The notes beneath the pieces were generated by a model. The model made no database searches. It was given only the letters and a program-made list of their open reading frames with translations, and was not told where the DNA came from. From Candidatus Micrarchaeia archaeon (GTDB lineage: Archaea; Micrarchaeota; Micrarchaeia; Anstonellales; Anstonellaceae): a DNA stretch of 42,034 bases. The stretch covers positions 1 through 42,034 of the forward strand of contig JBAZTI010000003.1 of assembly GCA_041662045.1 (NCBI GenBank), given 5' to 3'. A program made the position numbers and the translations under genes. Positions 12,771 through 37,083 of the stretch are shown here, one piece after another (positions within the stretch are counted from its first letter, which is position 1; every line of letters starts with the position of its first letter).

Positions 12771-13931
12771 TCAGGCAAGGAACTTTTTCTTCTCAATCTT
12801 TTCGCGCAGGTAGTCGCCCACGAAAGAAAGGCGGGGCCCCTGCAGCGCGTCCTGCTCGATTTTCTTTTTCGTCCTCAGGACGGTTTTCAGCTCCTCCACC
12901 CAGTCCTTGTGGCAGGAAATCCAGTCGTAGGAAAGCATCTCCTCGGCGCGCTTGATGTCCACTTCCTTTGCGTTTATGGTGAGCTGGCCCAAAAAGTCGT
13001 AGTCCTTGATGTCGCGCATGGTCACGCCCACGAAGCGCGCCTCGGGCGTGGCGATGTCGTTGCCCAGGTAGGCGAGGTTCATGCTGCCTGACTTTATCGC
13101 CCAGTAGATGTACCAGCCCCAGGCGTCGCAGTCCGTGAACACTATCACGGGAAGCTTGCGGCTCGCGAGCTTGCGGATGAGGCGGCGGCAGCCGCGGCTT
13201 GCCTGCCCCTTGGGGGTGATGAGTATGCAGTTTTCCTTCCTCCAGAACTTGTCCTCGTTCAGCCTCTGCCACATTGCGTCCTTTTCCACTACGAGCACGT
13301 AGTCCGCGTCAACCGACTTGAATTCCATGCCGTTGTCAACATCCGAGGGGATCATCCAGCCGCTCCTGCCCTGCTTCGTGCAGTCTATCTCGGTCTCGTC
13401 CCCCCCGAACTTGTCCCGGAGCACCATGGGGCCTGCCACCACGCCTTTCCTGTCCGTGTTGAGGTTCAGGTCCTCGCGCTTCACTGAGAGGGCGACCTCG
13501 AGGTCCTCCACAAGCGGGTTGCTTTCGCTTTGCTCCGAGAAAAGCTCCTCGTCCAACGTGTCGCCGAGCGAGAACTTGAGCTGGTAGTACAGGCCCCTTA
13601 TGGAGGTGTGCGCATTCTCCTTGAGGAATTTCTTGCACTTGGAGGCGATTGCCACGGTCTGCATGAACTTGCGCGCCTGCCCCACGTTTATGAAGGTGCG
13701 CTCTTCCGTCTTGTCGCCAAGCCTGATGAAGCCCACGCCGTTGTCGTATATTATGTTGCCCTTGCTCCTAAGCGCGGTGGTGAAGGTGGGGGAGCTGTCC
13801 GCCTCGATTTGCGCAAGCATGTCCCTGCCCAGCCGCTCGAGCTTGCCCGCGATGAACTCGCTGCCCTTGCCCGAGTCGGATGCTGACGCGGATGCTTTTT
13901 TCGGTGATTCCTTTGGTGACATGCCAACCAC
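12771..13931 (-). CDS. top6A: DNA topoisomerase VI subunit A (Spo11-like)
   Basis: Catalytic-Tyr region IRGLYYQLK, Toprim motifs VVEKDA and FTDCDAWGWYI. GTG start overlaps the top6B stop (TAGTG); an alternative ATG lies at 13922. Confidence 0.92.
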   Translation of the reverse strand: MVGMSPKESPKKASASASDSGKGSEFIAGKLERLGRDMLAQIEADSSPTFTTALRSKGNIIYDNGVGFIRLGDKTEERTFINVGQARKFMQTVAIASKCKKFLKENAHTSIRGLYYQLKFSLGDTLDEELFSEQSESNPLVEDLEVALSVKREDLNLNTDRKGVVAGPMVLRDKFGGDETEIDCTKQGRSGWMIPSDVDNGMEFKSVDADYVLVVEKDAMWQRLNEDKFWRKENCILITPKGQASRGCRRLIRKLASRKLPVIVFTDCDAWGWYIYWAIKSGSMNLAYLGNDIATPEARFVGVTMRDIKDYDFLGQLTINAKEVDIKRAEEMLSYDWISCHKDWVEELKTVLRTKKKIEQDALQGPRLSFVGDYLREKIEKKKFLA

Positions 13932-15588
13932 TATTCCTCGCCTTCGTCTTCCTCGTTCTTTCCATTCCCGTTCCCGTTCTTGCCGTTCCCGCTCTTTGCC
14001 TCCTCCTCGCCCTCTTCGGACTCTATCTGCGTGGAGTACTTGGTCTCGATGAGCGTGATGAGCTTTTTCTCAATCTCGCCCGCCTTGCCCTTGCCCGCCA
14101 GGTCAGGCAGGTCGTGGGAAAGCTGGGAGACATAGCGGATGATTGCCTTTTTCCTCTCCTTCCTGTCATGGTCGCGGCGTATGCCTGAAAGGTATGCCTG
14201 CAGGTCGCGCGCAGCCTCCATTATCGCGTTCTTTATCTCCTGCACGATTTCCTCGTCGTTTGAGATTGCCTGCTTGCCTGCTGACGTGTAGGGCACGTAG
14301 ACTGATGAGATGTTCACGAAAACCGACAGGGGCTCCTCCTCGAAGTTCTTCAGCTTGTAGCGCTTCCAGTCGATTGCCTTCACCGCCTCGGTGATTGCGC
14401 AGCCCGAATTGTCGAACAGCAACGGAGCGCGGTTGGCATAGCGTATCACCTCGGACGAGGACATGTCGCCTGCGGCTTTCTTCCCTGCCCCGCCCCCGTA
14501 TGCGAGCGCGGCCTCCACCATGAAGGGGATGCCCCCCTTGTATATCTTTGGCGAGCGCTCGGAAACCACCACGAACTCGGGCGCAAGGATGTTTTTCAGC
14601 GACTTTTCCACCTGCTCCTTGCCGATGGGCTTTACAGAGTCCGTCGAAGGCGCAATCCATTTAACCGCGGGGTTTTGTATCGCCTTGATGATTTTCTCCG
14701 CCTCCACCCACTGCAGCTCCTTCGGGTTCTTGTCAAGTCAACATCAGGGCAAAGCGCCTTCACCTCGTCCACCTTTGCCGCGGAGAAGCGCGCGAAGCGC
14801 TCCTGCAGGAACGAGGAGACGCGGCGGCATTCCTTTTCCCTGTGCGCAAAGTCTATCAGGTCGTTTGTGGAAATCCCCATGGGGTGCGGCTGCACAACGA
14901 GGGGCTTGTCAGGCACCCTGTCGGACGAGCGGGGGAACGCGTGCGTCTGGCCCTCTGGGTCGTGGAGCGTTATCTGCAGGTGCGGGTTGGCAAGCGCGGT
15001 CCTGCGCACGTACTCGTACACGCCGAAGCTTGACTTGTCGTATTTCACGTCGGCAAACTCGCCTTCCACCGTGAGGCCGTGCCCGAACTCGCCATCATCC
15101 TTCACCAGGTTCAGGACAAGGGGGGTGTTTGACTTGAGGTCGATTGACACTTCGCATGTGATGCGCCGCGTGTCATAGCGCGAGATTACTTTCACGGGTT
15201 TTCCAGTCGTTATCTGGGAGTACATGGTGCAGCCCGATGCGCCGATTCCCTGCTGGCCGCGCTGCTGCGCATAGCGGTGGAACTTGGTGCCTGCAAGCAT
15301 CTGCCCGAGCGCCTTGCCTATGTGCTTCTCCGGAATGCCGGGCCCGTTGTCCTCCGCAATCACCTTGTAGCGCTCCTTGTCGATTTCCTTTATGGTGATT
15401 TCCACCTCGGGAAGCATGCCGCCCTCCTCGCACGCGTCAAGCGAGTTGGTCACGTATTCGTGCACAATGGTGGTGAGCGAGCGCGTTTTCCCCGAAAAGC
15501 CGAGCATCTGCTGGTTCTTCTTGAAAAACTCCGCAACGGAGTGCTCGCGGAACTCGGAAAAAATCTTTTCTGTCGACGTGGGTGCCAT
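13931..15588 (-). CDS. top6B: DNA topoisomerase VI subunit B (GHKL ATPase); apparent 1-nt frameshift near 14735
   Basis: Bergerat-fold motifs (EYVTNSLDA, DNGPGI, GQQGIGASG) lie in ORF 14632..15588. The transducer domain lies in ORF 13931..14707. The frames join as ...ALCPDVDL-DKNPKELQWVEAEK if one nt is restored in GACTT_GACAAG. Confidence 0.9.
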
Positions 15589-15691
15589 CTAACCAACTGG
15601 TGAAGCGCAACATTGCCGCAAACTGGTCAAAACAAAATGGGGGGCGGCATTTATTAATAGTTTCGGAATGCACGACGGAAGGAGCCGGCTT

Positions 15692-16219
15692 TCAGAAAAG
15701 CTTCCTCACTTCGTCCTCCTTTATCCTGCGCCTGCATTTCTCAAGGTAGGCGTACACGGATGCGTGGTTGGAGCCCTCTATTATGCGGAAAACCGCCTCC
15801 ATTGCATAGTTGAGGGTGTCAAGCCTGCAAATCACGCCCACGGTGTGCCCGTAGCAGGCGACGTCCGCGCCCACCTCCTCCTTTATTATCTCCTTGGTGC
15901 GCCCGTTCTCGCCAATCACGCGCCCCATTATCCTGTGGCGCGCCTTTTCGCTGCCCGCATAGTCCCGTAAATCTATGAGCTTGAAGCCGTATTCGTCGGA
16001 AAGCAGCCTAAGCGCGATTGCTGGCTCAAAGCCCCTGCCGATGGCCTTCACGATGTCCTTGCCTATGAACTCGTCTATCGGGTCGCCCGAAATTTCCACT
16101 GCGCCGTCCGAGTCCACGGAAATGCCCACCTTCATCCTGCGCTCCAGGTAGTCCTTGGTCTCGCCCGACTCCCCTAGAAGCGCGGTAACGCGCTCGGACG
16201 GGATTTTCACAATCTGCAT
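15692..16219 (-). CDS. Two-KH-domain RNA-binding protein (aDim2/Pno1-like)
   Basis: Two KH-type GxxG regions (LLGESGETK, VIGENGRTK). About 175 aa from MQIVKIP. A TATA-like TTTTAATAGG lies ~35 nt upstream. Confidence 0.7.
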   Translation of the reverse strand: MQIVKIPSERVTALLGESGETKDYLERRMKVGISVDSDGAVEISGDPIDEFIGKDIVKAIGRGFEPAIALRLLSDEYGFKLIDLRDYAGSEKARHRIMGRVIGENGRTKEIIKEEVGADVACYGHTVGVICRLDTLNYAMEAVFRIIEGSNHASVYAYLEKCRRRIKEDEVRKLF

Positions 16220-16264
16220 AAGCCCACATCTATGAGGGGATTGGCATTGCAAACCCTATTAAAA

Positions 16265-16348
16265 CTACATGAAGTCCGCCAATCCTTTCTGCGCTTGAAG
16301 GCGCCGACATGCCCGCCCGCCTACATGAAGTCCGCCAATCCTTTCTGC
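16265..16348. repeat. Perfect 28-nt direct repeat containing the stop codon and last 8 codons of the PolD large subunit gene
   Basis: CTACATGAAGTCCGCCAATCCTTTCTGC occurs at 16265-16292 and 16321-16348, a period of 56 nt. The second copy is the true gene end (..QKGLADFM*). Confidence 0.95.
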
Positions 16349-19300
16349 TTTTCAGGCTCTTCCGTGAAGATGCTCGTGATGTCCTTCCTGAAAAGCTCCA
16401 TCCTCTGCTTCATGTATGGGGGCAGGTGGTAGCGCTCTATGAGGCGCTCTGCGTGGTCCAGGTATTTCGTTATCCCGCCCTTGTTTATGGTGAGGAGCAG
16501 CTTTCCCCCGCACGCGTTGCACTTGCCCGAGAGCGGCACGCGGCGGTATTTCACCTTGCACTCCAGGCAGCGGAACTCCTGCTGCGAGAACGAGCGCAGG
16601 TTGCCGTATAAATCCGGGAAAAAGTGGTGCAGGAGCAGCCGCTCGGCGGCGTCCGCAGGGTCAACCGCGCGTATTTTCTCCTGCAGGGTGAATTGCGCCT
16701 CTATTTTCTCGCCCATGTCCTTGAATTTCAGGTAGGTACTCTGGTGCGGGCCTGCGGAAACGTCCGCGGTCTCGTGGGAGTAGGGAAGGGACCCGTACTG
16801 CTCGGGCTTTCCAAGCAGCTTCTTCACGGTGTCCAGCTTAAGCTCGGATGGGGAGGCGTACTTGTCCGAAAGCTCGTAAAGCTCGATGGGGTAGGCGGAG
16901 CACACCTCCATGGAGTGCGCCTCGTCGTCCACCTCGTTGGGGTCAAGCTCCGTGGTGAGCACCAGGGGCGCGTCCATTGTGCCGCCGCGCGACTCGGGAA
17001 GGAATGCGCGCGAGAAGTTCAAGAGGCCGTCCATGAGCAGTATCACCGTGTCCTCGTCGCCGTCCGCGTTCCTCCTTTTCGCGGTGTGGAAGAACGGGTG
17101 GGCAAACCCCACGTGCGCGTCCGTGAAGCCCACAACGCGCGCAAGCACGCCTGCCGAGGTGTGCGGCGAGAGCCCGATAACCAGGTGCCCCAGCAAATCC
17201 TCCTCCTTCGAAAGATTGTAGAAGCGGGGCATGCCGTAGAGCTTGTCAAGCAGGTCGTCGATGAAGCGCGAGACCGAGAACAGGGTGTGCGCGCCGCTCC
17301 TTGAGAGGATGATGTCCTGCGCGTTGAGCGCGATTACCTGCGAGGCGTGCTCGAGCGGCCTGCCGTCCTTGTCGTGGGAGTAGCCGAAGCCGCGCGCCTG
17401 CTCCGCGCTTATGCCCATCTCGTCTGGGCGGAAATGAGTGAGGGGGATGTCGGTCGCGTCGAAGCGGCAGGTGCCGTCGCGGAACACGAACACGCCGTGC
17501 GCGGCGCGCAGGAAGCCCTTTTCCAGCGGCTCGGGCGTCTTTGATGCGGAGAAAAGCCCTTCCACGCCCTTTATGTCGGCAGACTTCGAGGCGTCGATGC
17601 CCGTGCGCTCTGCCGCGCGCTCGTAAAGCTTTATTATGTCCACCGCGCGCCTGTCGTAGTGCTTGGTTGCCACGCGGCACTCCGAGCACTCCTCGCTGTT
17701 CTTCGGCCTGCCGCACTTGGGGCAGACCAGCAGGAGAGCCGCCCTGCCGCCGCACGCGCACAAAGGCGAGAACGTCGTGTTGCCGCAGGAGGAACAGCGC
17801 ATGCGCGCGATTTCCACCTCCACGCCCCTGCCCTCGCGCTCCCCCTTGGCGCGAAGCTTCGCATATGCGCGGCTTATGGACGCGTTCTTGTCTATGCGGG
17901 TGCCTATCGGGAAAAGCACGTTCACGCTCTTTTTCATGCGCCGCTCGCGCGCCTTCTCGGGCCTGCCCATGCGCGAGCCGATGTATGTGGGCGCCTTGGG
18001 CATTATCCTCATGCCGGAAAGCTCGGACAGGGTGCCGAGCACCGGCTTTTTCCCGTCGAAAAGCGCGTCGAACTTCTCGCCCGTGATTTTCTTGTCCACC
18101 ATTATCCCCATGGTCTTCAGAAGCGCATAGGCGTGCTCCCCGGATATTTTCACCCTGCCCTCCTGCACGCTGTGCGGCACGCAAAGCTCCTCAAGCGCGG
18201 CTTTTGCAGGCGAGGACTCCAGCTCGAAGGATTCGAGCTTCAGGAGCCCGTAGCTCGGCTTGCCTGTGCGGAGCCACAGGGCAAGGTCCCGCAGCTGCTC
18301 GTGCGTGATGTCGTGCCAGAAGTACGTGTAGGTGGGGTGCAGTGGCAGGCCCGTCCTTCGCGCAAATGCCACCGCCTCGCCTGCAGGGCAGCCAGGGCGG
18401 GGGGGCAGCGCCCCCTGCTTCTTCGCCATGAGCTCGAGGCGCTCCTCGCACCATGCGGCAGGGAAAAGCGGGTGGTTGCTTTTCAGGAAGTCCCCGATCG
18501 AGACGAGCATGTCTCCCAGGAAAAGTATGCGCTCGACGCTCGGCAGGAGGCGCTCGGCCTCGCTTGCAGACTGCACCTCGACGACCGAGCCGTCCTTGAG
18601 CTTCACGGTGGGGCCCAGTATGGAGTCGCACGGGGTGATGACCGTGCTCTTGCCGGGCCGCTCTATTTTCATCTGCGTGCCCACCGCGAGGAAGGAGTCC
18701 AGCATGTACATGCTTGCAGGGTGCACCGCCTTGCCCATTATGCCGCTTCCGCGCGACCTGCCATAGCGGAGCCGCCAGCCGCCCTTTGTGGAAGGGTATG
18801 AGAAAATGGCCCTGCCGGCCACCGATTCCTCGAGGAAGCGGAAGTCGGGCTTGGGCTCGAACGCGCCCTCCTTTTTCGCCACCTTTATGATGGAGTCCAT
18901 CCAGCCCCAGTCAAGCCCGATTTTTTTGGTGTACCTTGAGACCTTTGCCGCCTTTTGGGCGATGCCTTCGCATATGACAAGCGCGATGCCCGAGCGCACG
19001 CGGTTGGTTGCGACCCCTGGCACGTCGCGGTGCACAGACACCTCTGCGTCCTCGGTGGGGTCGCCGTCTATGCAGACAGGGCAGCTCTTCACTATGTGGC
19101 GTATGTCCGCCTCGGGCGGGCGGTACTGCAGGTGCGCGGAGCGCGTGCCGTAGACGTCGATTTCCTCAACATACCTGTCAAGGAGCTCGTCGGTTGGGCG
19201 GAAGTCGCCTATGCCGAGCTGCCTGCGCGCCACGTCGCCAAGCACCACCGCAAGCGCGGCCACCGTGCCGCCTGCGGAGCGGATGGGGCCTGCGAAATAA

Positions 19301-19719
19301 ATGGCGAGGTAGTCGCTGCCGTCCTGGTTGCTCCGTATCTCGAACTTGGATATGCCCTCTGTCGGCGCCACGAGCACGCCCTCGGTCAGTATGCCTACTC
19401 CTGTCCGCACGGACTGCTCGATGAGCCTTTGCTTGCTTCCGCGGATTATCTCGCCGCGCACTATCTTGAGCACCACCATGTGCGCGATGGTCTGGCGCGA
19501 GTGCCCCTCCTTCTCAAGCGCGCGGATGACCTCGGTGATGCCTGGCGGCCCGACAATCCCCTCCACGCGCGCTGCAACGTCGGCTGCGCGCTTTATCTCA
19601 ACGTAAGGCGCAGGGTCGAGCCCCTTGCCCCGCGCCTCCTCGGCAACCGAATAGGCGCGCTCGCGGGCTGACGCAAGCGAGGAGAAATACCTTTCCATTT
19701 CCTCGCTCCTTTCCGTCAT
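16321..19719 (-). CDS. polC: DNA polymerase II (PolD) large subunit DP2
   Basis: 1132 aa. The N-terminus YFSSLASARERAYSVAEEARGKGLDPAPYVEI..AARVEGIVG and the Cys clusters (CSSCGNTTFSPLCACGG, CPKCGRP..CSEC, CLECKVKY..CNACGG) are typical of DP2. ATGA overlap with the DP1 gene. Length leaves no room for an intein. Confidence 0.95.
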   Translation of the reverse strand: MTERSEEMERYFSSLASARERAYSVAEEARGKGLDPAPYVEIKRAADVAARVEGIVGPPGITEVIRALEKEGHSRQTIAHMVVLKIVRGEIIRGSKQRLIEQSVRTGVGILTEGVLVAPTEGISKFEIRSNQDGSDYLAIYFAGPIRSAGGTVAALAVVLGDVARRQLGIGDFRPTDELLDRYVEEIDVYGTRSAHLQYRPPEADIRHIVKSCPVCIDGDPTEDAEVSVHRDVPGVATNRVRSGIALVICEGIAQKAAKVSRYTKKIGLDWGWMDSIIKVAKKEGAFEPKPDFRFLEESVAGRAIFSYPSTKGGWRLRYGRSRGSGIMGKAVHPASMYMLDSFLAVGTQMKIERPGKSTVITPCDSILGPTVKLKDGSVVEVQSASEAERLLPSVERILFLGDMLVSIGDFLKSNHPLFPAAWCEERLELMAKKQGALPPRPGCPAGEAVAFARRTGLPLHPTYTYFWHDITHEQLRDLALWLRTGKPSYGLLKLESFELESSPAKAALEELCVPHSVQEGRVKISGEHAYALLKTMGIMVDKKITGEKFDALFDGKKPVLGTLSELSGMRIMPKAPTYIGSRMGRPEKARERRMKKSVNVLFPIGTRIDKNASISRAYAKLRAKGEREGRGVEVEIARMRCSSCGNTTFSPLCACGGRAALLLVCPKCGRPKNSEECSECRVATKHYDRRAVDIIKLYERAAERTGIDASKSADIKGVEGLFSASKTPEPLEKGFLRAAHGVFVFRDGTCRFDATDIPLTHFRPDEMGISAEQARGFGYSHDKDGRPLEHASQVIALNAQDIILSRSGAHTLFSVSRFIDDLLDKLYGMPRFYNLSKEEDLLGHLVIGLSPHTSAGVLARVVGFTDAHVGFAHPFFHTAKRRNADGDEDTVILLMDGLLNFSRAFLPESRGGTMDAPLVLTTELDPNEVDDEAHSMEVCSAYPIELYELSDKYASPSELKLDTVKKLLGKPEQYGSLPYSHETADVSAGPHQSTYLKFKDMGEKIEAQFTLQEKIRAVDPADAAERLLLHHFFPDLYGNLRSFSQQEFRCLECKVKYRRVPLSGKCNACGGKLLLTINKGGITKYLDHAERLIERYHLPPYMKQRMELFRKDITSIFTEEPEKQKGLADFM

Positions 19720-21194
19720 ATCCCCACCCCTTCCTTGAAGCCTATGTAGTTCATCTTGCCAGTCATCGCCTCCAGCACCGGCACGAGCCCGGGCGATGGC
19801 ACGTGGCCCATCCTCACCTGGAAGTCGGTCCTGTCCTGGAAGGTGCCGCTGTTCAGGAGAAGCGCGCCGCGGTAGAGCATGTGCCCGTTCTTGTGCACGT
19901 GCCCCATGTGCACCACGTCGGGCTCGTCCTCCATCACTAGGTAGTCGTGCGCCTCGGGCACTATGAGGTTCTGCCCGTAAATCGGGGAGAGGTGGCGGCG
20001 GCGCACAAGCTCCAGCATTGCCTCGTGCGGCTTGTCGTACGAAAGCCCGCCTGCCGCGATAATGGAGTCGAGCGAGTTGCCGTGGTATATGAGGTGGCGC
20101 AGGCCCTCTATCTCCACGCGCGAGGGGCTGCCCACGCGCACCACGTTGCCCTTTATCATGTCATAGGGGATGATGGGCTGGGGCTCTGCGCGGCGCACAG
20201 CGTCGTGGTTGCCAGGCCCCACTATCACGGTTATGTAATCGGGTATCTTCTCCATGAAGGAGTCGAACATCTCGTACTGCTTGTAGATGTCCTTCACCGC
20301 AAGCTCCTTCTCCTGCTCGGGGTAGATGCCTATCCCGTCCGCAACGTCGCCTGCGATAACGACGTACTTCACCTTGCCTGCCAAATCAGCCCTGCCCTCG
20401 GAGCCGTTGAGCCAGCTTATGAAGTGCGAGAACTCGCCTTCCAGGAACTTCTTGCTGCCCATGTGCAGGTCCGAGATGTAGGCGATGGACAGGTCGCGCT
20501 CGGACTTCCTCTGCTCGCGGGCAACCGGGATGTCCGGCCACTCCACGTTGTCGCAGATGAAAAGCTCGTCCACGCTCTTGCCGTCGAACGCCACTATGTC
20601 GTCGGAAAGTATCTTGTGGTGCACCTTGAAGCCAGCGGTGTCCTTCATCACTACCACCTTGGCAGAGCCCTCCTCGTCCTCCACTTCCAGAAGCACGTTG
20701 CCTTTTTTCGTCATCTGCTTCCTGTTCACCATTGCGATGAGGCGCACTTTCGTGTTCTGGACGGACTTGAGCTTGCTTGTGGGCACGATGGCGTTCTGGG
20801 TGATGCGGGCGCGCACGATCTTGGAGATTCTCGCGTACCTGTCGCGGAAATGCGCCACGAAGTCCTCGAGCTTGCCGGTGCAGCGGGACTTGCCGCTCAC
20901 GTCGGATTTTTCAATGACTTTGTAGTTAGGGGAGTATTCCTTTGCAACCGGGCGGAAGGAGGGCGAGCGGCTCACCGCCGTTTCCACGGGGATTTTTCCC
21001 TCAGCGGACAGCATCCCGTCGATGTCGTCCTTTGCGAGCATGAACTTGCCGCTTGAGATGATTTTTTCAAGCGCGGAAGGCTCGAGGGCGAAATTCTCGA
21101 GGAACGAGTATGCGTCTGGGGAGAGGCGGATGCCTGCGGCGTAGATGGAGTCGATGTCGGATTTCAATTTCCCACCCGCAACTTGCTGCCTCAT
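19716..21194 (-). CDS. polB: DNA polymerase II (PolD) small subunit DP1
   Basis: OB-fold region followed by calcineurin-like phosphoesterase motifs DLHMGS, GDVADG, GNHD, HGNS, GHVH. Confidence 0.93.
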   Translation of the reverse strand: MRQQVAGGKLKSDIDSIYAAGIRLSPDAYSFLENFALEPSALEKIISSGKFMLAKDDIDGMLSAEGKIPVETAVSRSPSFRPVAKEYSPNYKVIEKSDVSGKSRCTGKLEDFVAHFRDRYARISKIVRARITQNAIVPTSKLKSVQNTKVRLIAMVNRKQMTKKGNVLLEVEDEEGSAKVVVMKDTAGFKVHHKILSDDIVAFDGKSVDELFICDNVEWPDIPVAREQRKSERDLSIAYISDLHMGSKKFLEGEFSHFISWLNGSEGRADLAGKVKYVVIAGDVADGIGIYPEQEKELAVKDIYKQYEMFDSFMEKIPDYITVIVGPGNHDAVRRAEPQPIIPYDMIKGNVVRVGSPSRVEIEGLRHLIYHGNSLDSIIAAGGLSYDKPHEAMLELVRRRHLSPIYGQNLIVPEAHDYLVMEDEPDVVHMGHVHKNGHMLYRGALLLNSGTFQDRTDFQVRMGHVPSPGLVPVLEAMTGKMNYIGFKEGVGI

Positions 21195-21271
21195 TCGGCG
21201 ATTGCGGCCCTTTGCTGAAAAATGCGGCGGCCTTGCACCACAAAGCCGGCGCCGTTACGGATTAATATGCA

Positions 21272-21523
21272 CTATTGCGTTTTTATGGATTCCAGCGCGG
21301 AGAGGATGGTCCATATCTGCGTCCGCGCATGCATGGGCATGTTGATGTCCTCGGACACTGCCTCGATGGAGTACACGGCCGAGCCCACCTTTGTCGAAAG
21401 CTCGTCTGCGCTTTTCAGCCTTTCGCGCGCCTCCACGAGCGCCCGGCGGATGTTCTTGGGCACGGAGGTGTCCTCGGCGACGTTGTTGATGAGCTCGACC
21501 ACTTCGGAGATGTTCTTTTCCAT
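21272..21523 (-). CDS. UPF0147-family small helical protein
   Basis: MEKNISEVVELINNVAEDTSVPKNIRRAL..AR..L...........A...I..VSEDINMPMHARTQIWTILSALE matches my memory of the archaeal UPF0147 signature (D.sVP.NIRr ... DpNmP.h.Rt.iW). Start taken at the internal ATG. Confidence 0.7.
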   Translation of the reverse strand: MEKNISEVVELINNVAEDTSVPKNIRRALVEARERLKSADELSTKVGSAVYSIEAVSEDINMPMHARTQIWTILSALESIKTQ

Positions 21524-21634
21524 GTTCCCACCTGCGCCAGTGTCACAAGCCGCGTGCGGCTCCAAAGATAATATGCAGTGTAAACGAAAGGCGGACGAAT
21601 TACATTCAAAAAGCTTATAATGAAACTTCCCGGC

Positions 21635-21901
21635 TCACTTTTTCCCAGCCTTGCCCCCCGTTATGGCGAAAGACGCGTTTGCAAGCGCAACCAGCGTGGC
21701 TGCGGCGTTCAGGACGATGAAAACCGCGTCGCCTATGTCGATGCTGTGCAGCGTCAGGAGGAAGCTTCCTGCGCCGTAAAGGAGCGCGAATTGGAGAGGC
21801 ACGCGCGCCTGCCTGCTGCGCAGCGCCTGCCGGAATTCCCATGCCCAGCCGGCAAGAATGAAAAGGAGCCCCAGGACGCTTATGTAATCCGCCACGCGCA
21901 A
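21635..21901 (-). CDS. Small membrane protein (3 TM helices)
   Basis: 88 aa, three hydrophobic helices, basic C-terminus. Confidence 0.45.
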   Translation of the reverse strand: MRVADYISVLGLLFILAGWAWEFRQALRSRQARVPLQFALLYGAGSFLLTLHSIDIGDAVFIVLNAAATLVALANASFAITGGKAGKK

Positions 21902-22107: not shown

Positions 22108-22180
22108 GGGGCCGTGGGCTAACCTGGTACGCTACCGCGTTCGGGACGCGGTGATCTGTGTTCAAATCACAGCGGCCCCA
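22108..22180 (+). tRNA. tRNA-Pro (anticodon CGG), no intron, CCA not encoded
   Basis: Acceptor GGGGCCG/CGGCCCC, anticodon stem CCGCG/CGCGG with loop TTCGGGA, T arm CTGTG-TTCAAAT-CACAG, discriminator A. The D stem has only 3 bp. Confidence 0.85.
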
Positions 22181-22184
22181 TTGA

Positions 22185-22258
22185 CATTTTCACGTAGGTG
22201 AAAATGGCAATAAGTTGTGCGAAGCACAACTGTATCGTCAAGTTGCAAGAGCAACTTG
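22185..22258 (+). repeat. Cluster of three consecutive hairpins between tRNA-Pro and the convergent nth stop
   Basis: CATTTTCAC-GTAG-GTGAAAATG (22185-22206), AGTTGTGC-GAA-GCACAACT (22213-22231), CAAGTTGC-AAGA-GCAACTTG (22239-22258). The 22-mer AAGTTGTGCGAAGCACAACTGT recurs at 23175-23196. Confidence 0.85.
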
Positions 22259-22261
22259 GCG

Positions 22262-22915
22262 CTATTTTTTCTTTAATCCTACTTTAGGGCACAGCTTGTT
22301 CACTGGGCACATTTCGCATTTCGGCCGGCGCGCTATGCAGATTGCCCTGCCGTGGTGCACGAACAGGTCGGAAATCCTGAGCCAGTCCTTGCGCGGGAGA
22401 AGCGCCATCAGGTCTCGCTCTATTTTTTCCTGCTGCCTCTCTCGCGTCCAGCCAAGCAGATGGCTTATCCTGATGGCGTGCGTGTCAACTGGCACGCCCT
22501 CCACCACGCCGTATGCGTTGCCAAGCACAATGTTTGCCGTCTTTCGCGCAACGCCTGGAAGCTTTAGCATCTCCTCCATGGTGCGCGGCACCTGCCCCTT
22601 GTGCTTTTCAGCAATTATCCTGCAGGAGGCGCGTATGTTTTTCGCCTTGTTATGGTAAAAGCCCGTGGAGCGGACAAGGGTTTCAAGCTCGGAAATGTCA
22701 GCCTCGGAAAAGTCTTTTGCAGACCTGTATCTCCTGAAAAGCGCAGGCGTCACAATGTTCACGCGCGCGTCGGTGCACTGCGCCGAGAGGATGGTGGCCA
22801 CAAGAAGCTGGAGAGGCGTGGTGTGCACAAGGGAGCATTTTGCATCAGGGTAGGCGCGCTTGAGAAGGGTTACGATTTTTCGCGCGCGGTCTTTTTTGGC
22901 AGGAAAACTTTCCAT
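22262..22915 (-). CDS. nth: Endonuclease III (DNA glycosylase/AP lyase)
   Basis: HhH-GPD region LPGVARKTANIVLGNAYG, catalytic-Lys context, C-terminal 4Fe-4S cluster loop C-x6-C-x2-C-x5-C (CIARRPKCEMCPVNKLC). Confidence 0.92.
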   Translation of the reverse strand: MESFPAKKDRARKIVTLLKRAYPDAKCSLVHTTPLQLLVATILSAQCTDARVNIVTPALFRRYRSAKDFSEADISELETLVRSTGFYHNKAKNIRASCRIIAEKHKGQVPRTMEEMLKLPGVARKTANIVLGNAYGVVEGVPVDTHAIRISHLLGWTRERQQEKIERDLMALLPRKDWLRISDLFVHHGRAICIARRPKCEMCPVNKLCPKVGLKKK

Positions 22916-22970: not shown

Positions 22971-23125
22971 CGGGCCCGTGGCGCAGCCTGGATAGCGCGG
23001 CAGACTTCTATCCGTAGGGGGCAGATGACTCAGATAATATCCCCCTAACGGTTCACCCCCAATTTGGGCGCATGAACCGGCGATGGAGAAATCTGAAGGT
23101 CGTGAGTTCAAATCTCACCGGGCCC
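22971..23125 (+). tRNA. tRNA-Arg (anticodon TCT) with an ~80-nt intron after position 37 (about 23010-23089)
   Basis: Acceptor GGGCCCG/CGGGCCC, D arm GCGC-AGCCTGGATA-GCGC, anticodon stem GCAGA / TCTGA (27:43 is G.A), loop CT-TCT-A, T arm GTGAG-TTCAAAT-CTCAC, discriminator G. The intron folds into two long stems. Confidence 0.8.
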
Positions 23126-23135
23126 GTTCTTTTTT
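23126..23135 (+). terminator. Oligo-T termination tract after tRNA-Arg
   Basis: TTCTTTTTTC immediately follows the discriminator base. Confidence 0.5.
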
Positions 23136-23137
23136 CA

Positions 23138-23219
23138 AGAAGGTCGTGATCGTCAACTGCGTAGCAGTTGGCGAGAAGTTGTGCGAAGCACAACTGTGAG
23201 TTCAAATCTCACCGGGCCC
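23138..23219 (+). repeat. Second copy of the tRNA-Arg 3' part, interrupted by a pair of hairpins
   Basis: GAAGGTCGTGA (23138-23148) equals 23094-23104. GTGAGTTCAAATCTCACCGGGCCCG (23195-23219) equals 23101-23125. The 46-nt insert holds CAACTGC-GTA-GCAGTTG and AGTTGTGC-GAA-GCACAACT. Confidence 0.9.
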
Positions 23220-23244
23220 GAATTTCCTTTTTATTAAGAAGTAC

Positions 23245-29219: not shown

Positions 29220-29905
29220 GCAAGAAGAGCGACGACGTTATGCGCCTTGAGGGCGTGTGCAAGATATACGAGATGGGCGAGGACAAGCTCTATGCGCTGA
29301 ACAATGTGGACCTGGTGATAAAGAGGGGCGAGTTCGCCTCCATCCTTGGCCCATCCGGCAGCGGCAAGTCCACGCTTTTGCACATACTGGGGCTTCTTGA
29401 CGAGCCCTCGCGGGGGGAGATATACCTGGACGGCATCGAGGTGCACAAGCTGAACGACGACGAGCGCGCGCACCTGCGCGGCAAGAAGATAGGGTTCATA
29501 TTCCAGATGTTCAACCTCATCCCAAGCCTCACCGTGCTTGAGAACGTGACGCTGCCGGCGCTCATTTACGAGTCGGACCCGGAAAAAGCGCAGCAGAAGG
29601 CGGTTGAGACGCTTCGGCAGATAGGGATGGGCGAGCGGCTGGGGCATTACCCCAACCAGCTTTCGGGCGGGCAGAGGCAGAGGGTGGCGATTGCGCGCGC
29701 CCTCATCAACGACCCGGAGATAATACTTGCGGACGAGCCGACCGGCAACCTGGACACCAAGACGGGCCACGAGGTTCTCGCAATGTTCCATGACCTGCAC
29801 AGGCAGGGCAAGACCATGATAATAGTGACGCACGACACCAATGTCGCAAAAATCACCCACCGGACAATCCGCGTGGTGGATGGCAAAATCGCCAAGGAAA
29901 GCTAG
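29216..29905 (+). CDS. ABC transporter ATP-binding protein (MacB/LolD-type)
   Basis: Walker [11 protein letters not shown]-loop, signature LSGGQRQR, Walker [13 protein letters not shown]-loop VTHD. Confidence 0.92.
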
Positions 29906-29915
29906 AGGTGAGAAT

Positions 29916-31421
29916 ATGGAAAACAGGATATTTGCAGTTTTGGCGCTCGCGCTTTGCCTTGCAGGCGCCGCGCATGCCACGCTTTACGTGGACTCGTATT
30001 CCGTGTCCCCGGCAAGCCTCAACCCCGGGCAGGAGGGAGTGGTCACTTTTGCCATACAAAACCCCATACCGACCGGCTTGACAACCACCGACCAGCTGGA
30101 GAGCGTGCAGGTATTCTATGCCGCGCCTGCCGGGATTGAGTACAAGGCAGCAAGCCCGTTCATGGTGGGCACCATAAGCGCCGGCGGCTCGGCATTGGTC
30201 ACAGTGCCTTTCAAGGTCCGCGCAGACGTGAAGGGAGGGGTGATAACCGCCCCGTTTTACATTTCCATGAAGGACGCGACAGACCTCAAGACAATAAATG
30301 CCGGGATAACCGTGGTGAACCCGGCCATACTGTCATTCAGCTCGGACCACCAGACCGTGCTTTCCACCGACCTGATAAACCTCACAATCACCAACAACGG
30401 GGGCTCGGCCTCCAGGGCATCGCTTTCGTTCGCAGCAGGGAGCAATTTCTCGTTCGTAGGCCTGACCTCGATATACATCGGCGACATCAAGGAATCCGTT
30501 TCGGTGATGGTGCCCCTTGACTCGAGGAAAGTGGCCGAAGGCGTGACAGGGGTGCCGTTCGTGCTTTCCTACACGGACGACGGCGGCAACAGCATTTCGT
30601 CCTCAAACACGCTCACGCTGGCAATCAAGAAGGAGAAGGCGGACGTGGCATTCACCCAGCTTGAGCCCATTGTGACCAACAAGGACAATGTGCTTCGCAT
30701 GAAGGTGAAGAACAACGGAAGGCCGCTTGAGGACTTCCGCGTTTACCTGACCGACGAGCTGGTAAAGGCAAAGGACTCGACGCCGATAAAGCTCGGGACG
30801 CTTGGCACCGATGACGAGAAGACGTTCGAGATCCTGGTCTTCGTCACCCAGCAGCCGGGCCTGAAGGCCACCTCATTCCAGATAAAGTGGGTGGAGGAGG
30901 ACGTGGACAAGGAAGAGGCCATCAGCGTGCCGATTGCGATAAGCTCGGACGCAGAGGTCGGGATATACCTGGATGCCAAGCCCGCCCCGATTGCGGTGGG
31001 CGGGGACTACACGCTCTCAGCTACAGTTTCCAACCTGGGCTCGTACAAGATAGCCAACGTGGTGGTGTCTCTCGAGGAGAGCGACGCGTTTGTCGGTCTC
31101 AACGTGCAGAAGGAGCAGTACATAGGCAACCTGGACAATGACGCATTCTCCACAGTGCAGTACAAGATACGCGTGAAGCCCGCCATTGAGGCAGGCCAGT
31201 ACCCGCTTGTTTTCAAGGTGCGCTACAAGGACCAGTCCGGCCTTTGGATTGAGAAGGAAATCAGGACGATGGTGAGCGTAAGGCCTGCAAGCGAGGGAGT
31301 GGCAAAGGACAACGGCAGCGGAACGCTTATGCTCATCGGGGGCGTGGCAGTGGTTGCGGTTGGCTACTGGTACTTCAGGATGAGAAAGCCCAAGCATGGG
31401 CTTTCTCAGAAGTCGAGCTAG
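29916..31421 (+). CDS. Secreted CARDB/S-layer-like repeat protein with a C-terminal TM anchor
   Basis: RBS-like AGAGGTGA precedes the ATG. Signal peptide MENRIFAVLALALCLAGAAHA, repeated beta-rich modules, C-terminal LMLIGGVAVVAVGYWYF plus a basic tail. Confidence 0.7.
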   Translation: MENRIFAVLALALCLAGAAHATLYVDSYSVSPASLNPGQEGVVTFAIQNPIPTGLTTTDQLESVQVFYAAPAGIEYKAASPFMVGTISAGGSALVTVPFKVRADVKGGVITAPFYISMKDATDLKTINAGITVVNPAILSFSSDHQTVLSTDLINLTITNNGGSASRASLSFAAGSNFSFVGLTSIYIGDIKESVSVMVPLDSRKVAEGVTGVPFVLSYTDDGGNSISSSNTLTLAIKKEKADVAFTQLEPIVTNKDNVLRMKVKNNGRPLEDFRVYLTDELVKAKDSTPIKLGTLGTDDEKTFEILVFVTQQPGLKATSFQIKWVEEDVDKEEAISVPIAISSDAEVGIYLDAKPAPIAVGGDYTLSATVSNLGSYKIANVVVSLEESDAFVGLNVQKEQYIGNLDNDAFSTVQYKIRVKPAIEAGQYPLVFKVRYKDQSGLWIEKEIRTMVSVRPASEGVAKDNGSGTLMLIGGVAVVAVGYWYFRMRKPKHGLSQKSS

Positions 31422-31434
31422 GGGCTCGGCTAAG

Positions 31435-31470
31435 ATGAGAAAGCGCAAGCCGGCGCTTTCCCAGAAGTAG
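31435..31470 (+). repeat. Degenerate duplicate of the last 13 codons + stop of the preceding gene
   Basis: ATGAGAAAGCGCAAGCCGGCGCTTTCCCAGAAGTAG (MRKRKPALSQK*) versus the gene end ATGAGAAAGCCCAAGCATGGGCTTTCTCAGAAGTCGAGCTAG (MRKPKHGLSQKSS*, 31380-31421). Confidence 0.8.
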
Positions 31471-34001: not shown

Positions 34002-34167
34002 GCAGGGATAGCCAAGCTTGGTCAAAGGCGCAGGACTCAGAGAGCCCTTTTTGCTCCTCCCGCAAGCGCTCGTCGCAAAAAGCGCTCGCGGAAAAGTAAA
34101 ATGTGCAACAAGGTCTTCGGAAATCCTGTCGGTTAGCCGTTCGTGGGTTCAAATCCCCCTCCCTGCA
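34002..34167 (+). tRNA. tRNA-Leu (anticodon CAG) with an ~81-nt intron after position 37 (about 34042-34122)
   Basis: Acceptor GCAGGGA/TCCCTGC, D arm GCC-AAGCTTGGTCAAA-GGC, anticodon stem CAGGA/TCCTG, loop CT-CAG-A, long variable arm (CGG-TTAG-CCG), T arm GTGGG-TTCAAAT-CCCCC (one U.C mismatch), discriminator A. Confidence 0.8.
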
Positions 34168-34184
34168 CTTCGCTCTTGCTCAGT

Positions 34185-34248
34185 GCAGGTCGGTTTCGAC
34201 CTGCGGTCGAAATCCCGCCAGCAAGCTGGCGGTCCCCCTCCCTGCACT
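34185..34248 (+). repeat. Degenerate second copy of the tRNA-Leu T-arm/3' end, embedded in two hairpins
   Basis: Hairpin GCAGGTCG-GTTT-CGACCTGC (34185-34204), T-loop-like GGTCGAAATCC, hairpin CGCCAGC-AA-GCTGGCG (34216-34231), then TCCCCCTCCCTGCACT (34233-34248), identical to 34154-34169. Confidence 0.85.
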
Positions 34249-36833: not shown

Positions 36834-37083
36834 TTATTTGAGCCGAATCGCATCAAGGTTCATCGGGGCTCGCGAGTCGATGCGCAACGCTAGTTGCGCA
36901 GATTTTCAGCCTCAGCTGAAAAGACGAGCGGGCTCTACTTGAGCCTGATGGCATCCAAATTCATGGGTGCGCGCGAGTCGACGGACAACCGCAGTTGGAC
37001 GGATTTTCAGCGCAGCTGAAAACAAGAGCGCCATCCTATTTCAGCCTGATAGCATCAAGATTCATTGGCGCTCTTGAATCGAT
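36834..37083 (-). repeat. Tandem array (period 101 nt, 3 copies) of the aCPSF1 3' coding tail plus a hairpin-bearing spacer
   Basis: Tails at 37036-37083 (in the gene), 36935-36982 and 36834-36881. Spacers of 53 nt each hold TTTTCAGC-N3/4-GCTGAAAA (37004-37022, 36903-36922) and a CAAC-N4-GTTG stem (36882-36899 is perfect). Confidence 0.95.

Follow-up and report, generated by a model that had tools for sequence, protein, structure and literature searches.

The 3′ part of a live tRNA-Arg gene in this Micrarchaeota genome is followed closely by a second, interrupted copy of itself. In the window, by which we mean the whole 42,034-nt stretch that was analysed, the last 32 nt of tRNA-Arg(TCT) recur 12 nt downstream, split into 11 and 25 nt by a 46-nt pair of hairpins (Table 1). 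We read this second segment as a non-functional, displaced attachment-site copy (attR-like), that is, as an att-type scar with miniature palindromic cassettes, and give this reading a probability of roughly 60%. A preliminary description of the same DNA had reported the duplication, and all the elements it named are there, each of its coordinates being one too low; the copy it saw downstream is present as well, at a distance of 12 nt (23127-23138) and not the 13 nt it gave.

Table 1. Features of the tRNA-Arg locus and of related loci in the window
Feature	Position	Strand	Evidence
Three hairpins directly behind tRNA-Pro(CGG) (gene 22108-22180), same module family as the tRNA-Arg insert	22181..22264	.	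folding, z = -7.1
Functional tRNA-Arg(TCT) gene with 80-nt canonical intron	22972..23126	+	Rfam RF00005, 47.4 bits; BHB scan
Repeat copy 1, attL-like, within the live gene: tRNA positions 42-73 (variable loop, T-arm, acceptor 3′ strand, discriminator)	23095..23126	+	exact matches
TTCTTTTTTCAA, oligo-T tract, the sole DNA separating the two 32-nt copies	23127..23138	+	read from sequence
Repeat copy 2, left part, GAAGGTCGTGA, tRNA positions 42-52	23139..23149	+	exact match to 23095-23105
Hairpin A, TCGTCAACTGC-GTA-GCAGTTGGCGA, 11 bp with one G-T	23150..23174	.	folding; covarying homologue at 22235-22261 behind tRNA-Pro
Hairpin B, AGTTGTGC-GAA-GCACAACT, 8 bp	23177..23195	.	folding; 22-nt identity
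Repeat copy 2, right part, tRNA positions 49-73; displaced attR-like pseudo-3′ end joined to the resident downstream flank	23196..23220	+	exact match
Second oligo-T tract, CCTTTTTATT	23226..23235	+	sequence; alignment
tRNA-Leu(CAG) (gene 34002-34167), same architecture as tRNA-Arg	34154..34247	+	repeat and hairpin search
FttA/aCPSF1 3′-end displacement array (ORF 37036-38973)	36834..37083	-	sequence comparison

The upstream copy belongs to an intact gene. Our own BHB scan, which was validated on this canonical intron, places it at 23011-23090 (position 37/38), with a central helix of 4/4 pairs and an outer helix of 4 bp at the junctions 23010/23011 and 23090/23091; the 5′ part and intron of the gene are also kept in the genomes L045 and L069. 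Oligo-T is a termination signal for archaeal RNA polymerase, and TTCTTTTTTCAA probably terminates transcription of tRNA-Arg. The second oligo-T tract that had been noted behind the copy is likewise present. It is probably the original trailer of tRNA-Arg: in the alignment, CCTTTTTATT falls at the place of a T-rich trailer that L002 and L003 have after their last copy and L045 after its only one. The flank past copy 2 then reaches a convergent gene that ends at 23245.

The repeat is not due to chance. There are two exact matches to GTGAGTTCAAATCTCACCGGGCCCG, 23102-23126 and 23196-23220; with 3 mismatches permitted, two matches were still not reached in any of 100 shuffles. The GAAGGTCGTGA 11-mer alone would be unremarkable, since searched window-wide with 1 mismatch it gives two matches in 9 of 100 shuffles; at this locus, though, the copy is exact, collinear and adjoins the 25-mer. 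The duplicated segment begins inside the tRNA, stops precisely at the discriminator base and matches without a single difference (100% identity), and the T-rich trailers behind the two copies are unrelated, which fits insertion by recombination and not tandem slippage. The locus shows one feature of an att duplication by a tRNA-targeting tyrosine-integrase element: a direct repeat (25 + 11 nt exact) of the 3′ part of a tRNA, with the intact tRNA at the upstream copy. The attL/attR pair around a 46-nt element that had been suggested earlier stands as a general type of explanation and fails in its geometry, because the hairpin pair sits inside copy 2. Only 12 nt lie between the copies at 23095-23126 and 23139-23220; when just the uninterrupted 25-mer is counted as the repeat, the space becomes a 69-nt mini-element. 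Neither stretch holds an integrase gene or cargo. This counts against the att explanation, as 12 nt is far too little unless the hairpins and the 11-mer belong to the element. Pfam searches of the ORFs and tblastn detected no integrase, transposase or Cas1 gene within the 42-kb window.

The insert within copy 2 (23150-23195) has GTGA at either side, so that its borders are ambiguous over 4 nt. It consists of two perfect hairpins (MFE -25.9 kcal/mol, z = -5.8), and the 22 nt at 23176-23197 that hold hairpin B are identical to 22212-22233 downstream of tRNA-Pro, where B and A follow in reversed order relative to the tRNA-Arg insert. The window's tRNA-Pro(CGG) has no 3′-end duplicate behind it; the first of its trailer hairpins is kept with compensatory changes behind tRNA-Pro in L007. 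The hairpins had been assigned to a dispersed family, and this holds in a limited sense: both have counterparts behind tRNA-Pro, insert-related palindromes occupy only two loci in the window, and kindred modules lie behind tRNAs and in one tRNA intron elsewhere, in numbers too small for a family to be claimed across the genome. At tRNA-Leu(CAG), TCCCCCTCCCTGCAC stands at 34154-34168 and again at 34233-34247, with a 64-nt two-hairpin mini-element (34169-34232) in between that is homologous to an element behind tRNA-Pro in L003. Across the cassettes the sense strand is the more stable in only 8 of 17, and so there is no evidence for the hairpins acting as RNA; we reject a strand-specific RNA structure on these grounds. 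Box-like strings in the cassettes stand in the wrong order for a C/D-box or H/ACA guide RNA, as judged by eye only.

Related genomes supply the states that an integration history would leave behind. An empty-site version, which the preliminary description had suggested looking for, is found in the close relative L045: its ArgRS is 80% identical, its tRNA-Arg has the same intron and T-arm, and there is a single 3′ end with no duplicate. The duplicated architecture itself recurs in independent MAGs at tRNA-Arg, tRNA-Pro and tRNA-Leu. Elsewhere the tRNA 3′-end copies are 14-15 nt long, run from T-loop position 59/60 to the discriminator and lie behind hairpin cassettes of 63-88 nt; they occur in L002 and L069 (Arg), L003 (Arg, Pro), L026 (Arg, three copies), L119, L130 and at the window's own tRNA-Leu. 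In 822 kb of Micrarchaeota DNA, exact repeats of at least 12 nt that flank a hairpin at a spacing of 40-160 nt are essentially all at tRNA genes.

The same sites take up much larger insertions. The 3′ ends of tRNA-Leu and tRNA-Pro in sister genomes are attachment sites of integrase-bearing mobile elements. In L204, a 5.3-kb stretch leads from tRNA-Leu and a first 12-nt repeat through an integrase, a restriction-modification gene and a hairpin to the second copy of the repeat. L201 and L202 carry two integrase-type elements and a two-hairpin mini-element in tandem at tRNA-Leu, with three repeat copies between; tRNA-Leu also leads into an integrase in L206-209 and L056, as does tRNA-Pro in L054. 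The right-hand repeat boundary of the tRNA-Leu integrase elements, immediately after TGCAC, is the same as that of the window's tRNA-Leu cassette. The left ends of the Leu mini-elements resemble those of the integrase elements in a way that is suggestive only, the similarity being too weak to claim homology. As to mobile elements carrying a tRNA-Arg 3′ fragment, which had also been proposed as a check, the metagenome contig L147 has a 1.2-kb VapBC toxin-antitoxin element between 14-nt tRNA-Arg(TCT) 3′-end repeats, integrase absent. Viral contigs contained no free element with the 32-nt tRNA-Arg segment, nor any match to hairpin B, the Leu/Pro cassette core or the tRNA-Arg 3′ 29-mer. No kilobase element was found at the tRNA-Arg locus in close relatives. 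A scan of one metagenome with the tRNA-Arg 3′ 21-mer returned mostly unrelated archaeal tRNAs and was informative only for L119, L130, L147 and L185. The plainer possibility raised at the outset, that the copy is an ordinary att scar, is borne out indirectly, by the empty site in L045, the integrase elements at tRNA-Leu and tRNA-Pro, and L147.

An essential protein gene in the same window is laid out in the same way. In the FttA/aCPSF1 array, the live last 16 codons (37036-37083) are followed by two hairpins, copy 1 (36935-36982), two further hairpins and copy 2 (36834-36881). The 3′-end copies differ at 11 of 45 nt with 0 amino-acid changes (p<2e-5). In the sister genome L201, the live end is the sequence nearest to displaced copy 1 (6 differences), and the displaced copy is the one nearest to displaced copy 2 (8 differences). 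Given the synonymous-only divergence and these affinities, each copy was presumably once a functional end, with new ends arriving gene-proximally. On sequence comparison, the pattern indicates that recombination replaced the end serially, as opposed to slippage or duplication of a target site. On this evidence, the gene for an essential transcription-termination factor has repeatedly had its 3′ end swapped for recoded, protein-identical versions, which is a clear mark of gene ends being turned over by recombination in a reduced DPANN genome.

The att-type reading of the tRNA-Arg locus can be put as follows. DNA with its own copy of the tRNA 3′ part would have recombined site-specifically into the tRNA-Arg gene; the incoming copy and T-tract would now complete and terminate the live tRNA (attL side), and the resident 3′ part would have been displaced downstream. 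Between and inside the copies would lie a miniature, integrase-less cassette of about 69 nt with a T-rich left end and two perfect palindromes. Such a cassette could be the stump of an integrated element left by deletion, or else a mini-element, itself non-autonomous, that the abundant tyrosine integrases of the lineage move in trans, and an integrase may well have made this particular duplication. Repeated events at one site would give rise to arrays in which the newest copy adjoins the gene. Where the upstream duplicate is missing, the cassette would lie inside the sole gene copy and would survive only if a BHB forms, thereby becoming a non-canonical intron. A double-stranded DNA circle of about 70-100 bp is a physically implausible substrate for integration, so that movement in trans would need another vehicle. 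In addition, the repeat at tRNA-Arg measures 25 or 32 nt (from position 42 or 49), as against 14-15 nt at other tRNAs and a 12-nt core in the tRNA-Leu elements, so that two or more recombination systems or kinds of event may have been at work. The arrangement at the window's tRNA-Arg is known from one assembly.

Transposition with target-site duplication would account for a repeat by other means: nicks about 15 bp apart, in the T-loop and at the tRNA end, made by a casposase/Cas1-like or other transposase, with gap repair copying the resident 3′ end. We consider this unlikely. The regularity of the duplications at other tRNAs (14-15 nt, position 59/60 to 73) speaks for it and matches in length the 14-15-bp duplications of casposons, some of which lie at tRNA 3′ ends (PMC5137440, PMC4779613). 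Casposons, too, are known as tandem arrays and solo remnants (PMC4779613). However, the repeat at the window's tRNA-Arg is 25 or 32 nt and not 14-15, the cassettes have local hairpins only and no terminal inverted repeats, and Cas1 was not seen by Pfam in the window or in the fetched loci. The position relative to the tRNA differs as well, since the casposon duplication of A. boonei overlaps its tRNA by only 5 bp (PMC5137440), whereas the duplication here is wholly inside the gene. The integrase elements at tRNA-Leu, moreover, share the right-hand repeat boundary. The tRNA-Arg copies are identical and therefore uninformative on whether the duplicate is of resident origin; the FttA copies are not resident duplicates, as 11 synonymous and 0 replacement changes are impossible by resident duplication and neutral decay. 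We therefore reject a casposon or Cas1 as the main explanation, on the absence of terminal inverted repeats, the absence of Cas1 from the window and the fetched loci, the wrong position relative to the tRNA and the synonymous-only divergence of FttA.

It is quite improbable that the locus arose by a purely local accident, in which slippage or template switching at palindromes duplicated the tRNA 3′ end and the tRNA-Pro module was later copied in, with no recombinase. A donor-like module with 22 identical nt does lie only 950 nt away, GTGA microhomology borders the insert on both sides, the window has no recombinase gene, and the lack of hairpin strand bias (8/17) is expected of palindromes in DNA, which intrastrand templating can restore. 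A tandem duplication, however, should copy the trailer too; the 32 nt are the same in both copies, and yet TTCTTTTTTCAA bears no relation to AATTTCCTTTTTATT. Local events would also have to strike the same boundaries, with homologous cassettes, at one tRNA after another across several genomes, in slots that are elsewhere filled by kilobase integrase elements, and to leave the horizontal or serial-replacement signature that the FttA copies bear.

A third explanation makes the structure a functional RNA: either copy 2 serves read-through transcripts as an alternative 3′ exon, copy 1 and the hairpins forming a long T-arm intron, or the hairpins and the 3′ fragment form a tRNA-like small RNA. The preliminary description had likewise thought of a 3′ tRNA half with a T-arm intron, and had proposed a search for a BHB at the insert borders; that search found none in any register, and the idea is abandoned. 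Over the 46-50-nt insert, all five registers give at most 3/4 central pairs and no flanking helices, and the long copy 1-to-copy 2 registers fail too, so that both intron readings are rejected. The interrupted copy comprises only tRNA positions 42-73 behind a T6 tract and is not a complete tRNA gene. It has no TATA-like box ahead of it, and the window holds no orphan 5′ half. With no BHB at the insert and no 5′ half, it is not a spliceable tRNA half, and a split 3′-half gene of the Nanoarchaeum/Caldivirga type is rejected because the copy starts at position 42, 12 nt behind a complete gene.

What lends a functional RNA some appeal is the splicing repertoire of the phylum. Micrarchaeota splice introns at 53/54 and 59/60, and the splicing endonuclease of ARMAN-2 (Micrarchaeum) cleaves 59/60 introns in vitro (PMC3239211). 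In L001, L211 and L213, the sole copy of the tRNA-Arg gene has a 42-nt hairpin insert at 59/60 with an hBHBh′-like motif (outer helix 5 bp, central pairs 3/4, inner helix 5 bp). By its predicted structure, the T-loop insert of this L001-type lineage looks like a genuine non-canonical intron, and such genes need splicing of this kind; part of it, GTGCTGACAA, is common to the duplicate-flanked cassette in L002 and L069. In L002, L069, L130 and the window's tRNA-Leu, the 59/60 junction shows a relaxed motif with a central helix of 3-4/4 pairs and the T-stem as outer helix, and at the tRNA-Arg locus a cloverleaf-like structure can be sketched from copy 2 with its hairpins. Against this, the tRNA-Arg of the window has no BHB register, either for the 46-nt insert or for the long intron, a T6 tract lies ahead of the copy, and the central-helix complementarity across the 59/60 cases is not above chance, just as the hairpins show no sense-strand bias. 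Selection would have nothing to act on, because the spliced and unspliced products are the same tRNA. The FttA array has no BHB register common to the window and L201, and its splicing is rejected as well. We thus regard a functional RNA as very improbable. An assembly artefact, a misjoined or collapsed repeat in a metagenome-assembled contig, is hardly credible: the arrangement comes from a single assembly, JGI and NCBI listing one and the same 42,034-nt contig, and the contig of the close relative L210 stops at exactly this spot, but the whole structure is 126 nt, shorter than a read, its two copies have different flanks, equivalents exist in MAGs or contigs of unrelated studies (L002, L003, L069, L026, L119), and the L201 array at tRNA-Leu turns up once more in L202, a separate assembly of a different sample.

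Returning to the att-type scar, archaeal tRNA duplications made by tyrosine-integrase elements include the 44-bp repeat that SSV1 shares with tRNA-Arg as well as the pNOB8-type layout, and tRNA gene fragments of integrative-element origin have been catalogued in Thermococcaceae (PMC3293823, PMC9897764). As in the pNOB8-type layout (PMC3293823), the integrase of the relatives adjoins the reconstituted tRNA on the same strand, and, as with such duplications in general, tandem elements and an empty site exist. In contrast to them, the repeats of the window are separated by 12 nt, or by a palindromic cassette of 69 nt, with neither integrase nor cargo. Cassettes of 46-88 nt form a family found at several tRNAs, and FttA, an essential protein gene, has the same type of array. 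The palindromes themselves recall REP/BIME elements and MITEs in being short, perfect and paired, in standing at gene 3′ ends with compensatory changes and a near-identical copy elsewhere in the genome, and in showing no strand bias. Unlike those, they have few copies in 42 kb and keep to att arrays and to the flanks and introns of tRNA genes, not being generally intergenic; no RAYT/IS200-type gene was seen in the DNA examined.

The CIMEs of Streptococcus ICEs are integrase-less, att-flanked units, kilobases long, that are built by accretion. Remnants of another kind are the solo-TIRs of casposons in Methanosarcina mazei (PMC4779613). Like both, the Micrarchaeota cassettes would be non-autonomous or remnant units that keep site duplications and stand in tandem with autonomous elements at the 3′ end of a conserved gene. 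They measure tens of nucleotides where CIMEs measure kilobases, and they lack the inverted terminal repeats from which the M. mazei solo-TIRs derive. Closer to home, non-canonical BHB introns lie at T-loop position 59/60 in tRNAs of ARMAN-2 (Ca. Micrarchaeum) (PMC3239211), in the same phylum and at the very position where the 14-15-nt duplicates start. Unlike these, the insert in the window lies at about 48-52/53, without a BHB and in a dead copy, and so is not an intron.

A broader scheme can be proposed for Micrarchaeota, possible in our view and still doubtful: integrase-less palindromic cassettes of about 45-90 bp would insert site-specifically at the T-loop or 3′ half of tRNAs and at the 3′ ends of essential genes, each bringing a replacement end and building ordered arrays, with loss of the upstream duplicate yielding the non-canonical 59/60 introns that are typical of the phylum. 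The direction from duplicate to intron may be suggested by the range of states that a few genomes present, namely the empty site, the kilobase integrase element, tandem elements, the duplicate-flanked mini-cassette and the lone T-loop cassette with a BHB. This series offers a concrete and testable case for the debated origin of non-canonical archaeal tRNA introns, and it fits the model, proposed from Caldiarchaeum, that tRNA introns and fragments arise through mobile-element integration (Sugahara et al. 2012). If cassettes are indeed a source of introns, intron birth would be readable from natural intermediate states. The comparison also flags an abundant integrase family with defined tRNA targets in Micrarchaeota.

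Taken alone, the tRNA-Arg duplicate is probably an integration scar of an ordinary kind, and one that can mislead annotation; what is unusual is its miniature, array-forming character. Rfam at its gathering threshold overlooks several intron-containing tRNAs, such as the tRNA-Leu of L204, which were recovered by motif search. At default settings, ARAGORN missed the tRNA-Arg gene at 22972-23126, and with introns enabled it fused both copies into a bogus 251-nt 'tRNA-Ala'.

The duplicated tRNA-Arg 3' end lies in a core region of the chromosome of a Micrarchaeota (DPANN) archaeon; the region encodes PolD DP1 and DP2, Topo VI, endonuclease III, ArgRS, FttA/aCPSF1, a proteasome subunit, KaiC-like ATPases and type-IV-pilus-like genes, and no integrase, transposase or Cas1 was found in the gene content of the 42-kb window. 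The gene, a tRNA-Arg(TCT) with an 80-nt intron at position 37/38 (47.4 bits, Rfam), is followed by a repeat of its last 32 nt that is split by a 46-nt insert; the preliminary description of this repeat was exact apart from its coordinates, every one of which was 1 too low. The 25-mer of the tRNA 3' end did not recur in shuffled sequences, and the insert folds as two perfect hairpins, A and B (-25.9 kcal/mol, z = -5.8). A hairpin 950 nt upstream, behind tRNA-Pro, matches hairpin B and its flanks exactly over 22 nt, and a covarying homologue of hairpin A is found there too, the two modules standing in the opposite order. The locus can equally well be described as a 69-nt mini-element between 25-nt direct repeats, in which a left end rich in T, 11 nt of tRNA-like sequence and hairpins A and B can be told apart, a layout that fits the family pattern at other tRNAs (T-rich end, two hairpins, core).

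Coordinates of the features discussed, in the window and in relatives' loci or metagenome contigs (L numbers)
Locus	Feature	Position	Strand	Remark
window	tRNA-Arg(TCT)	22972-23126
window	tRNA-Arg intron splice sites	23010|23011, 23090|23091		bulge-helix-bulge (BHB) scan
window	copy 1	23095-23126		last 32 nt of tRNA-Arg
window	spacer			12 nt, TTCTTTTTTCAA, between copies 1 and 2
window	copy 2, overall	23139-23220
window	copy 2, left part	23139-23149		GAAGGTCGTGA
window	insert in copy 2	23150-23195		46 nt
window	copy 2, right part	23196-23220		GTGAGTTCAAATCTCACCGGGCCCG, then second T-tract
window	spurious 'tRNA-Ala(agc)'	22971-23221		251 nt
window	hairpins behind tRNA-Pro	22181-22264		three
window	tRNA-Leu(CAG)	34002-34167
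window	tRNA-Leu(CAG) array	34154-34247
window	tRNA-Leu(CAG) 3' copy	34233-34247		last 15 nt
window	FttA/aCPSF1	37036-38973	minus
window	FttA 3'-end array	36834-37083	minus
window	CARDB/DUF11 ORF	29841-31421		ends ...MRKPKHGLSQKSS*
window	CARDB/DUF11 end and copy	31380-31468
window	Topo VI subunit B	13931-15588	minus	two overlapping ORFs
window	HATPase part	14632-15588	minus	ORF
window	transducer part	13931-14707	minus	ORF
L052	protein gene end and copy	1040-1180
L201	elements at tRNA-Leu	14400-21896		sister MAG
L201	RT-16 RNA	18088-18258		Rfam
L204	tRNA-Leu 5' fragment	7572-7646		13 nt
L014	tRNA-Leu 5' fragment	328-453		26 nt
L119	tRNA-Arg(CCT)	128-314	minus

We favor an explanation by att-type recombination with serial replacement of gene ends, to which we assign a probability of about 0.6. 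Incoming DNA would bring a new 3' end and displace the resident one, such that copy 1 with TTCTTTTTTCAA would be the incoming 3' end with its terminator, and copy 2 with CCTTTTTATT the resident end after displacement, directly joined to the downstream gene. These two trailers are unrelated even though the 32-nt copies match exactly, and this speaks against tandem slippage. The main uncertainty is the enzyme acting at tRNA-Arg and the vehicle of the mini-cassettes; the cassette could be a non-autonomous unit or else the stump that a larger element left behind. Hairpin stability shows no sense-versus-antisense bias (8 of 17 cassettes), indicating that the hairpins behave as DNA palindromes rather than strand-specific RNA, with candidate roles such as recombinase sites, accessory-protein sites or self-templating palindromes.

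An assembly artefact might be suspected, given that the window's own arrangement is present in one assembly only; however, the same layout recurs at the window's tRNA-Leu and in relatives' loci, which makes an artefact very unlikely. The tRNA-Leu(CAG), the second intron-containing tRNA of the window, repeats its last 15 nt after a 64-nt two-hairpin segment. Among 80 syntenic or related Micrarchaeota loci fetched via ArgRS, the closest present every state at the orthologous tRNA-Arg. The single 3' end that the preliminary description had proposed to look for in relatives was found in L045, an empty site with tRNA and intron as in the window. In L002 and L069 a complete tRNA and T-tract are followed by a three-hairpin segment (72-73 nt between maximal exact repeats) and then by the last 15 nt again, with an additional third copy in L069, itself split by ~90 nt of hairpins. 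L003 carries a 14-nt duplicate behind tRNA-Arg after 72 nt and repeats the pattern at its tRNA-Pro, and the distant Micrarchaeia locus L026 has three copies with two homologous, diverged cassettes between them, whose stems are preserved by compensatory changes. In all four loci the copies start at T-loop position 59/60 and end exactly at the discriminator base. The tRNA-Pro cassette of L003 is homologous to the window's tRNA-Leu cassette (TTTCGnnnTGCnnnCGAAATCCCGCC), which means that cassettes move from one tRNA gene to another. Across 822 kb of Micrarchaeota DNA, essentially all exact repeats that are 12 nt or longer and flank a hairpin at 40-160 nt spacing lie at tRNA genes.

Autonomous elements occupy the same sites in relatives. 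The sister genome of the window, the MAG that also gave the empty tRNA-Arg site (FttA 95% identical to the window's), carries at tRNA-Leu (L201, tRNA-sense strand) element A, with an integrase, a reverse transcriptase with RT-16 RNA and a D12 methylase, then CCCTCCCTGCA, element B (1.2 kb, ParE/DUF7557), CCCTCCCTGCA, a two-hairpin mini-element, TCCCCTCCCTGCA and a T-tract; the distal part of this array is reproduced in L202, a second assembly from another sample. The L201 region looks like a defence-gene island; its integrase is a tyrosine integrase, the RT-16 RNA lies ahead of the reverse transcriptase, and the tRNA-Leu body is beyond the locus end. A complete 5.3-kb unit at tRNA-Leu(CAA) in L204 comprises the tRNA, a 12-nt repeat, a tyrosine integrase (398 aa, same strand, 110 nt downstream), an MmeI-like restriction-modification gene and, after a hairpin that abuts the core, a second occurrence of the 12-nt repeat. 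Such tRNA-integrase loci share the pNOB8-type layout of archaeal integrative elements (PMC3293823). An integrase also follows tRNA-Leu in L206-209 and L056, and a 34%-identical one follows tRNA-Pro in L054; homologues number thousands, mostly in Micrarchaeota. At tRNA-Arg(TCT), the metagenome contig L147 holds a 1.2-kb VapBC element, with no integrase, between 14-nt 3'-end repeats. Taken together, these elements and repeats at tRNA-Leu, tRNA-Pro and tRNA-Arg suggest that in this lineage the 3' ends of tRNA genes serve as active attachment sites. The slot and the right-hand repeat boundary (TGCAC|) are common to mini-cassettes and autonomous elements; at their left ends the mini-elements at tRNA-Leu also resemble the integrase elements, which is suggestive only.

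The array behind FttA/aCPSF1 provides evidence on mechanism that is independent of the tRNA loci. Two hairpins, displaced copy 1, two further hairpins and displaced copy 2 follow the gene, and each copy comprises the final 15 codons and the stop codon. The three versions of the end differ pairwise at 11 of 45 nt and encode the same peptide, DSRAPMNLDAIRLK*, all differences being synonymous, a conservation matched in 0 of 50,000 random-substitution trials. Judging from this synonymous-only divergence, each copy must once have been a functional end; neither target-site duplication nor slippage, each followed by neutral decay, can yield it. In L201, FttA has one displaced copy, behind ~220 nt of hairpins. 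The window's copy 1 is closest to the L201 live end (6 differences) and copy 2 to the L201 displaced copy (8 differences), and the window's lineage has thus gained a new, differently recoded end on the gene-proximal side, where att-type recombination predicts its arrival.

The preliminary description had offered, besides an attL/attR pair, a 3' tRNA half with a T-arm intron. This interpretation was partly right. The structure is att-like, and the insert is not an intron: a scan that recovers the canonical tRNA-Arg intron found no BHB motif in any of the five registers open to the 46-50-nt insert, and none for a long intron that would reach from copy 1 into copy 2. Nor is copy 2 a tRNA half; it holds only tRNA positions 42-73, behind a T6 tract. 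In L001, and in the independently assembled L211 and L213, the T-loop of one tRNA-Arg(TCT) gene without duplicate holds a hairpin insert of 42 nt, which makes an hBHBh'-like motif with the T-stem as outer helix, a 3/4 central helix, 3-nt bulges and an inner helix of 5 bp in L001 (4/5, by inspection, in L211). If spliced at 59/60, the transcript is predicted to regain UUCAAAU. For ARMAN-2, a Micrarchaeum, both introns at 59/60 and their cleavage by an epsilon2 endonuclease have been described (PMC3239211). The L001 intron shares its 3' end (GTGCTGACAA) with the 5' part of the duplicate-flanked cassette in L002 and L069. We infer that the change runs from duplicate-flanked cassette to intron.

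Direct repeats of tRNA 3' parts are a textbook remnant of integrative elements, and the tRNA-Arg locus, confirmed as first observed, is by itself an ordinary scar. What is unusual is that the hairpin cassettes, of which we found no description in the searchable literature, are miniature and recurrent, form ordered arrays, and stand behind an essential protein gene with synonymously recoded displaced ends. Also unusual is the occurrence of duplicate-flanked beside BHB-forming cassettes at one T-loop position, a known site of non-canonical introns in Micrarchaeota, which lends support to the model in which mobile elements disrupt tRNA genes, and extends it.

Several further observations concern these and other genes. 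The three strong hairpins between tRNA-Pro and its T-tract come with no 3'-end duplicate; the first (CATTTTCAC/GTGAAAATG) is conserved with compensatory changes behind tRNA-Pro of L007, a similar one occurs behind the tRNA-Pro of L040 and L056, and in L007 and L040 a 3' fragment of a different tRNA follows. By inspection, both copies of the tRNA-Leu(CAG) T-stem show an apparent U50-C64 mismatch, which could reflect a chimeric 3' end. In L204 and L014, fragments of the tRNA-Leu 5' end recur ahead of the gene with a hairpin in between, which shows that 5'-side duplications occur too. In L119, a tRNA-Arg(CCT) whose 32-nt 3' module is identical to that of the window's tRNA-Arg(TCT) has a canonical intron of some length and, at 43/44, an insert of 35 nt (T5 tract and hairpin, GTGA at either side, no BHB). 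A 73-nt cassette and then a degenerate 3' copy of 13 nt follow this tRNA gene, which is perhaps a pseudogene or else derives by deletion from an arrangement like that of the window. A diverged copy (MRKRKPALSQK*) follows the CARDB/DUF11 surface-protein ORF after 21 nt, its internal hairpin keeping the stem through compensatory changes (GCCC/GGGC to GCGC/GCGC), and another Micrarchaeota protein gene, in L052, ending ...RECMMFPRDRTRVHP*, has a diverged in-frame copy, PWCMMFPRDRARVYP*, 42 nt later that differs in amino acids. ARAGORN at default settings misses tRNA-Arg(TCT) as well as tRNA-Leu; with introns enabled, it miscalls tRNA-Leu as tRNA-Ser and joins the real tRNA-Arg 5' half to the second 3' copy as the spurious tRNA-Ala, such repeats being a recognized cause of spurious calls (PMC9897764). 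Finally, the two ORFs of Topo VI subunit B may reflect a frameshift, a sequencing error or a gene that is truly split.
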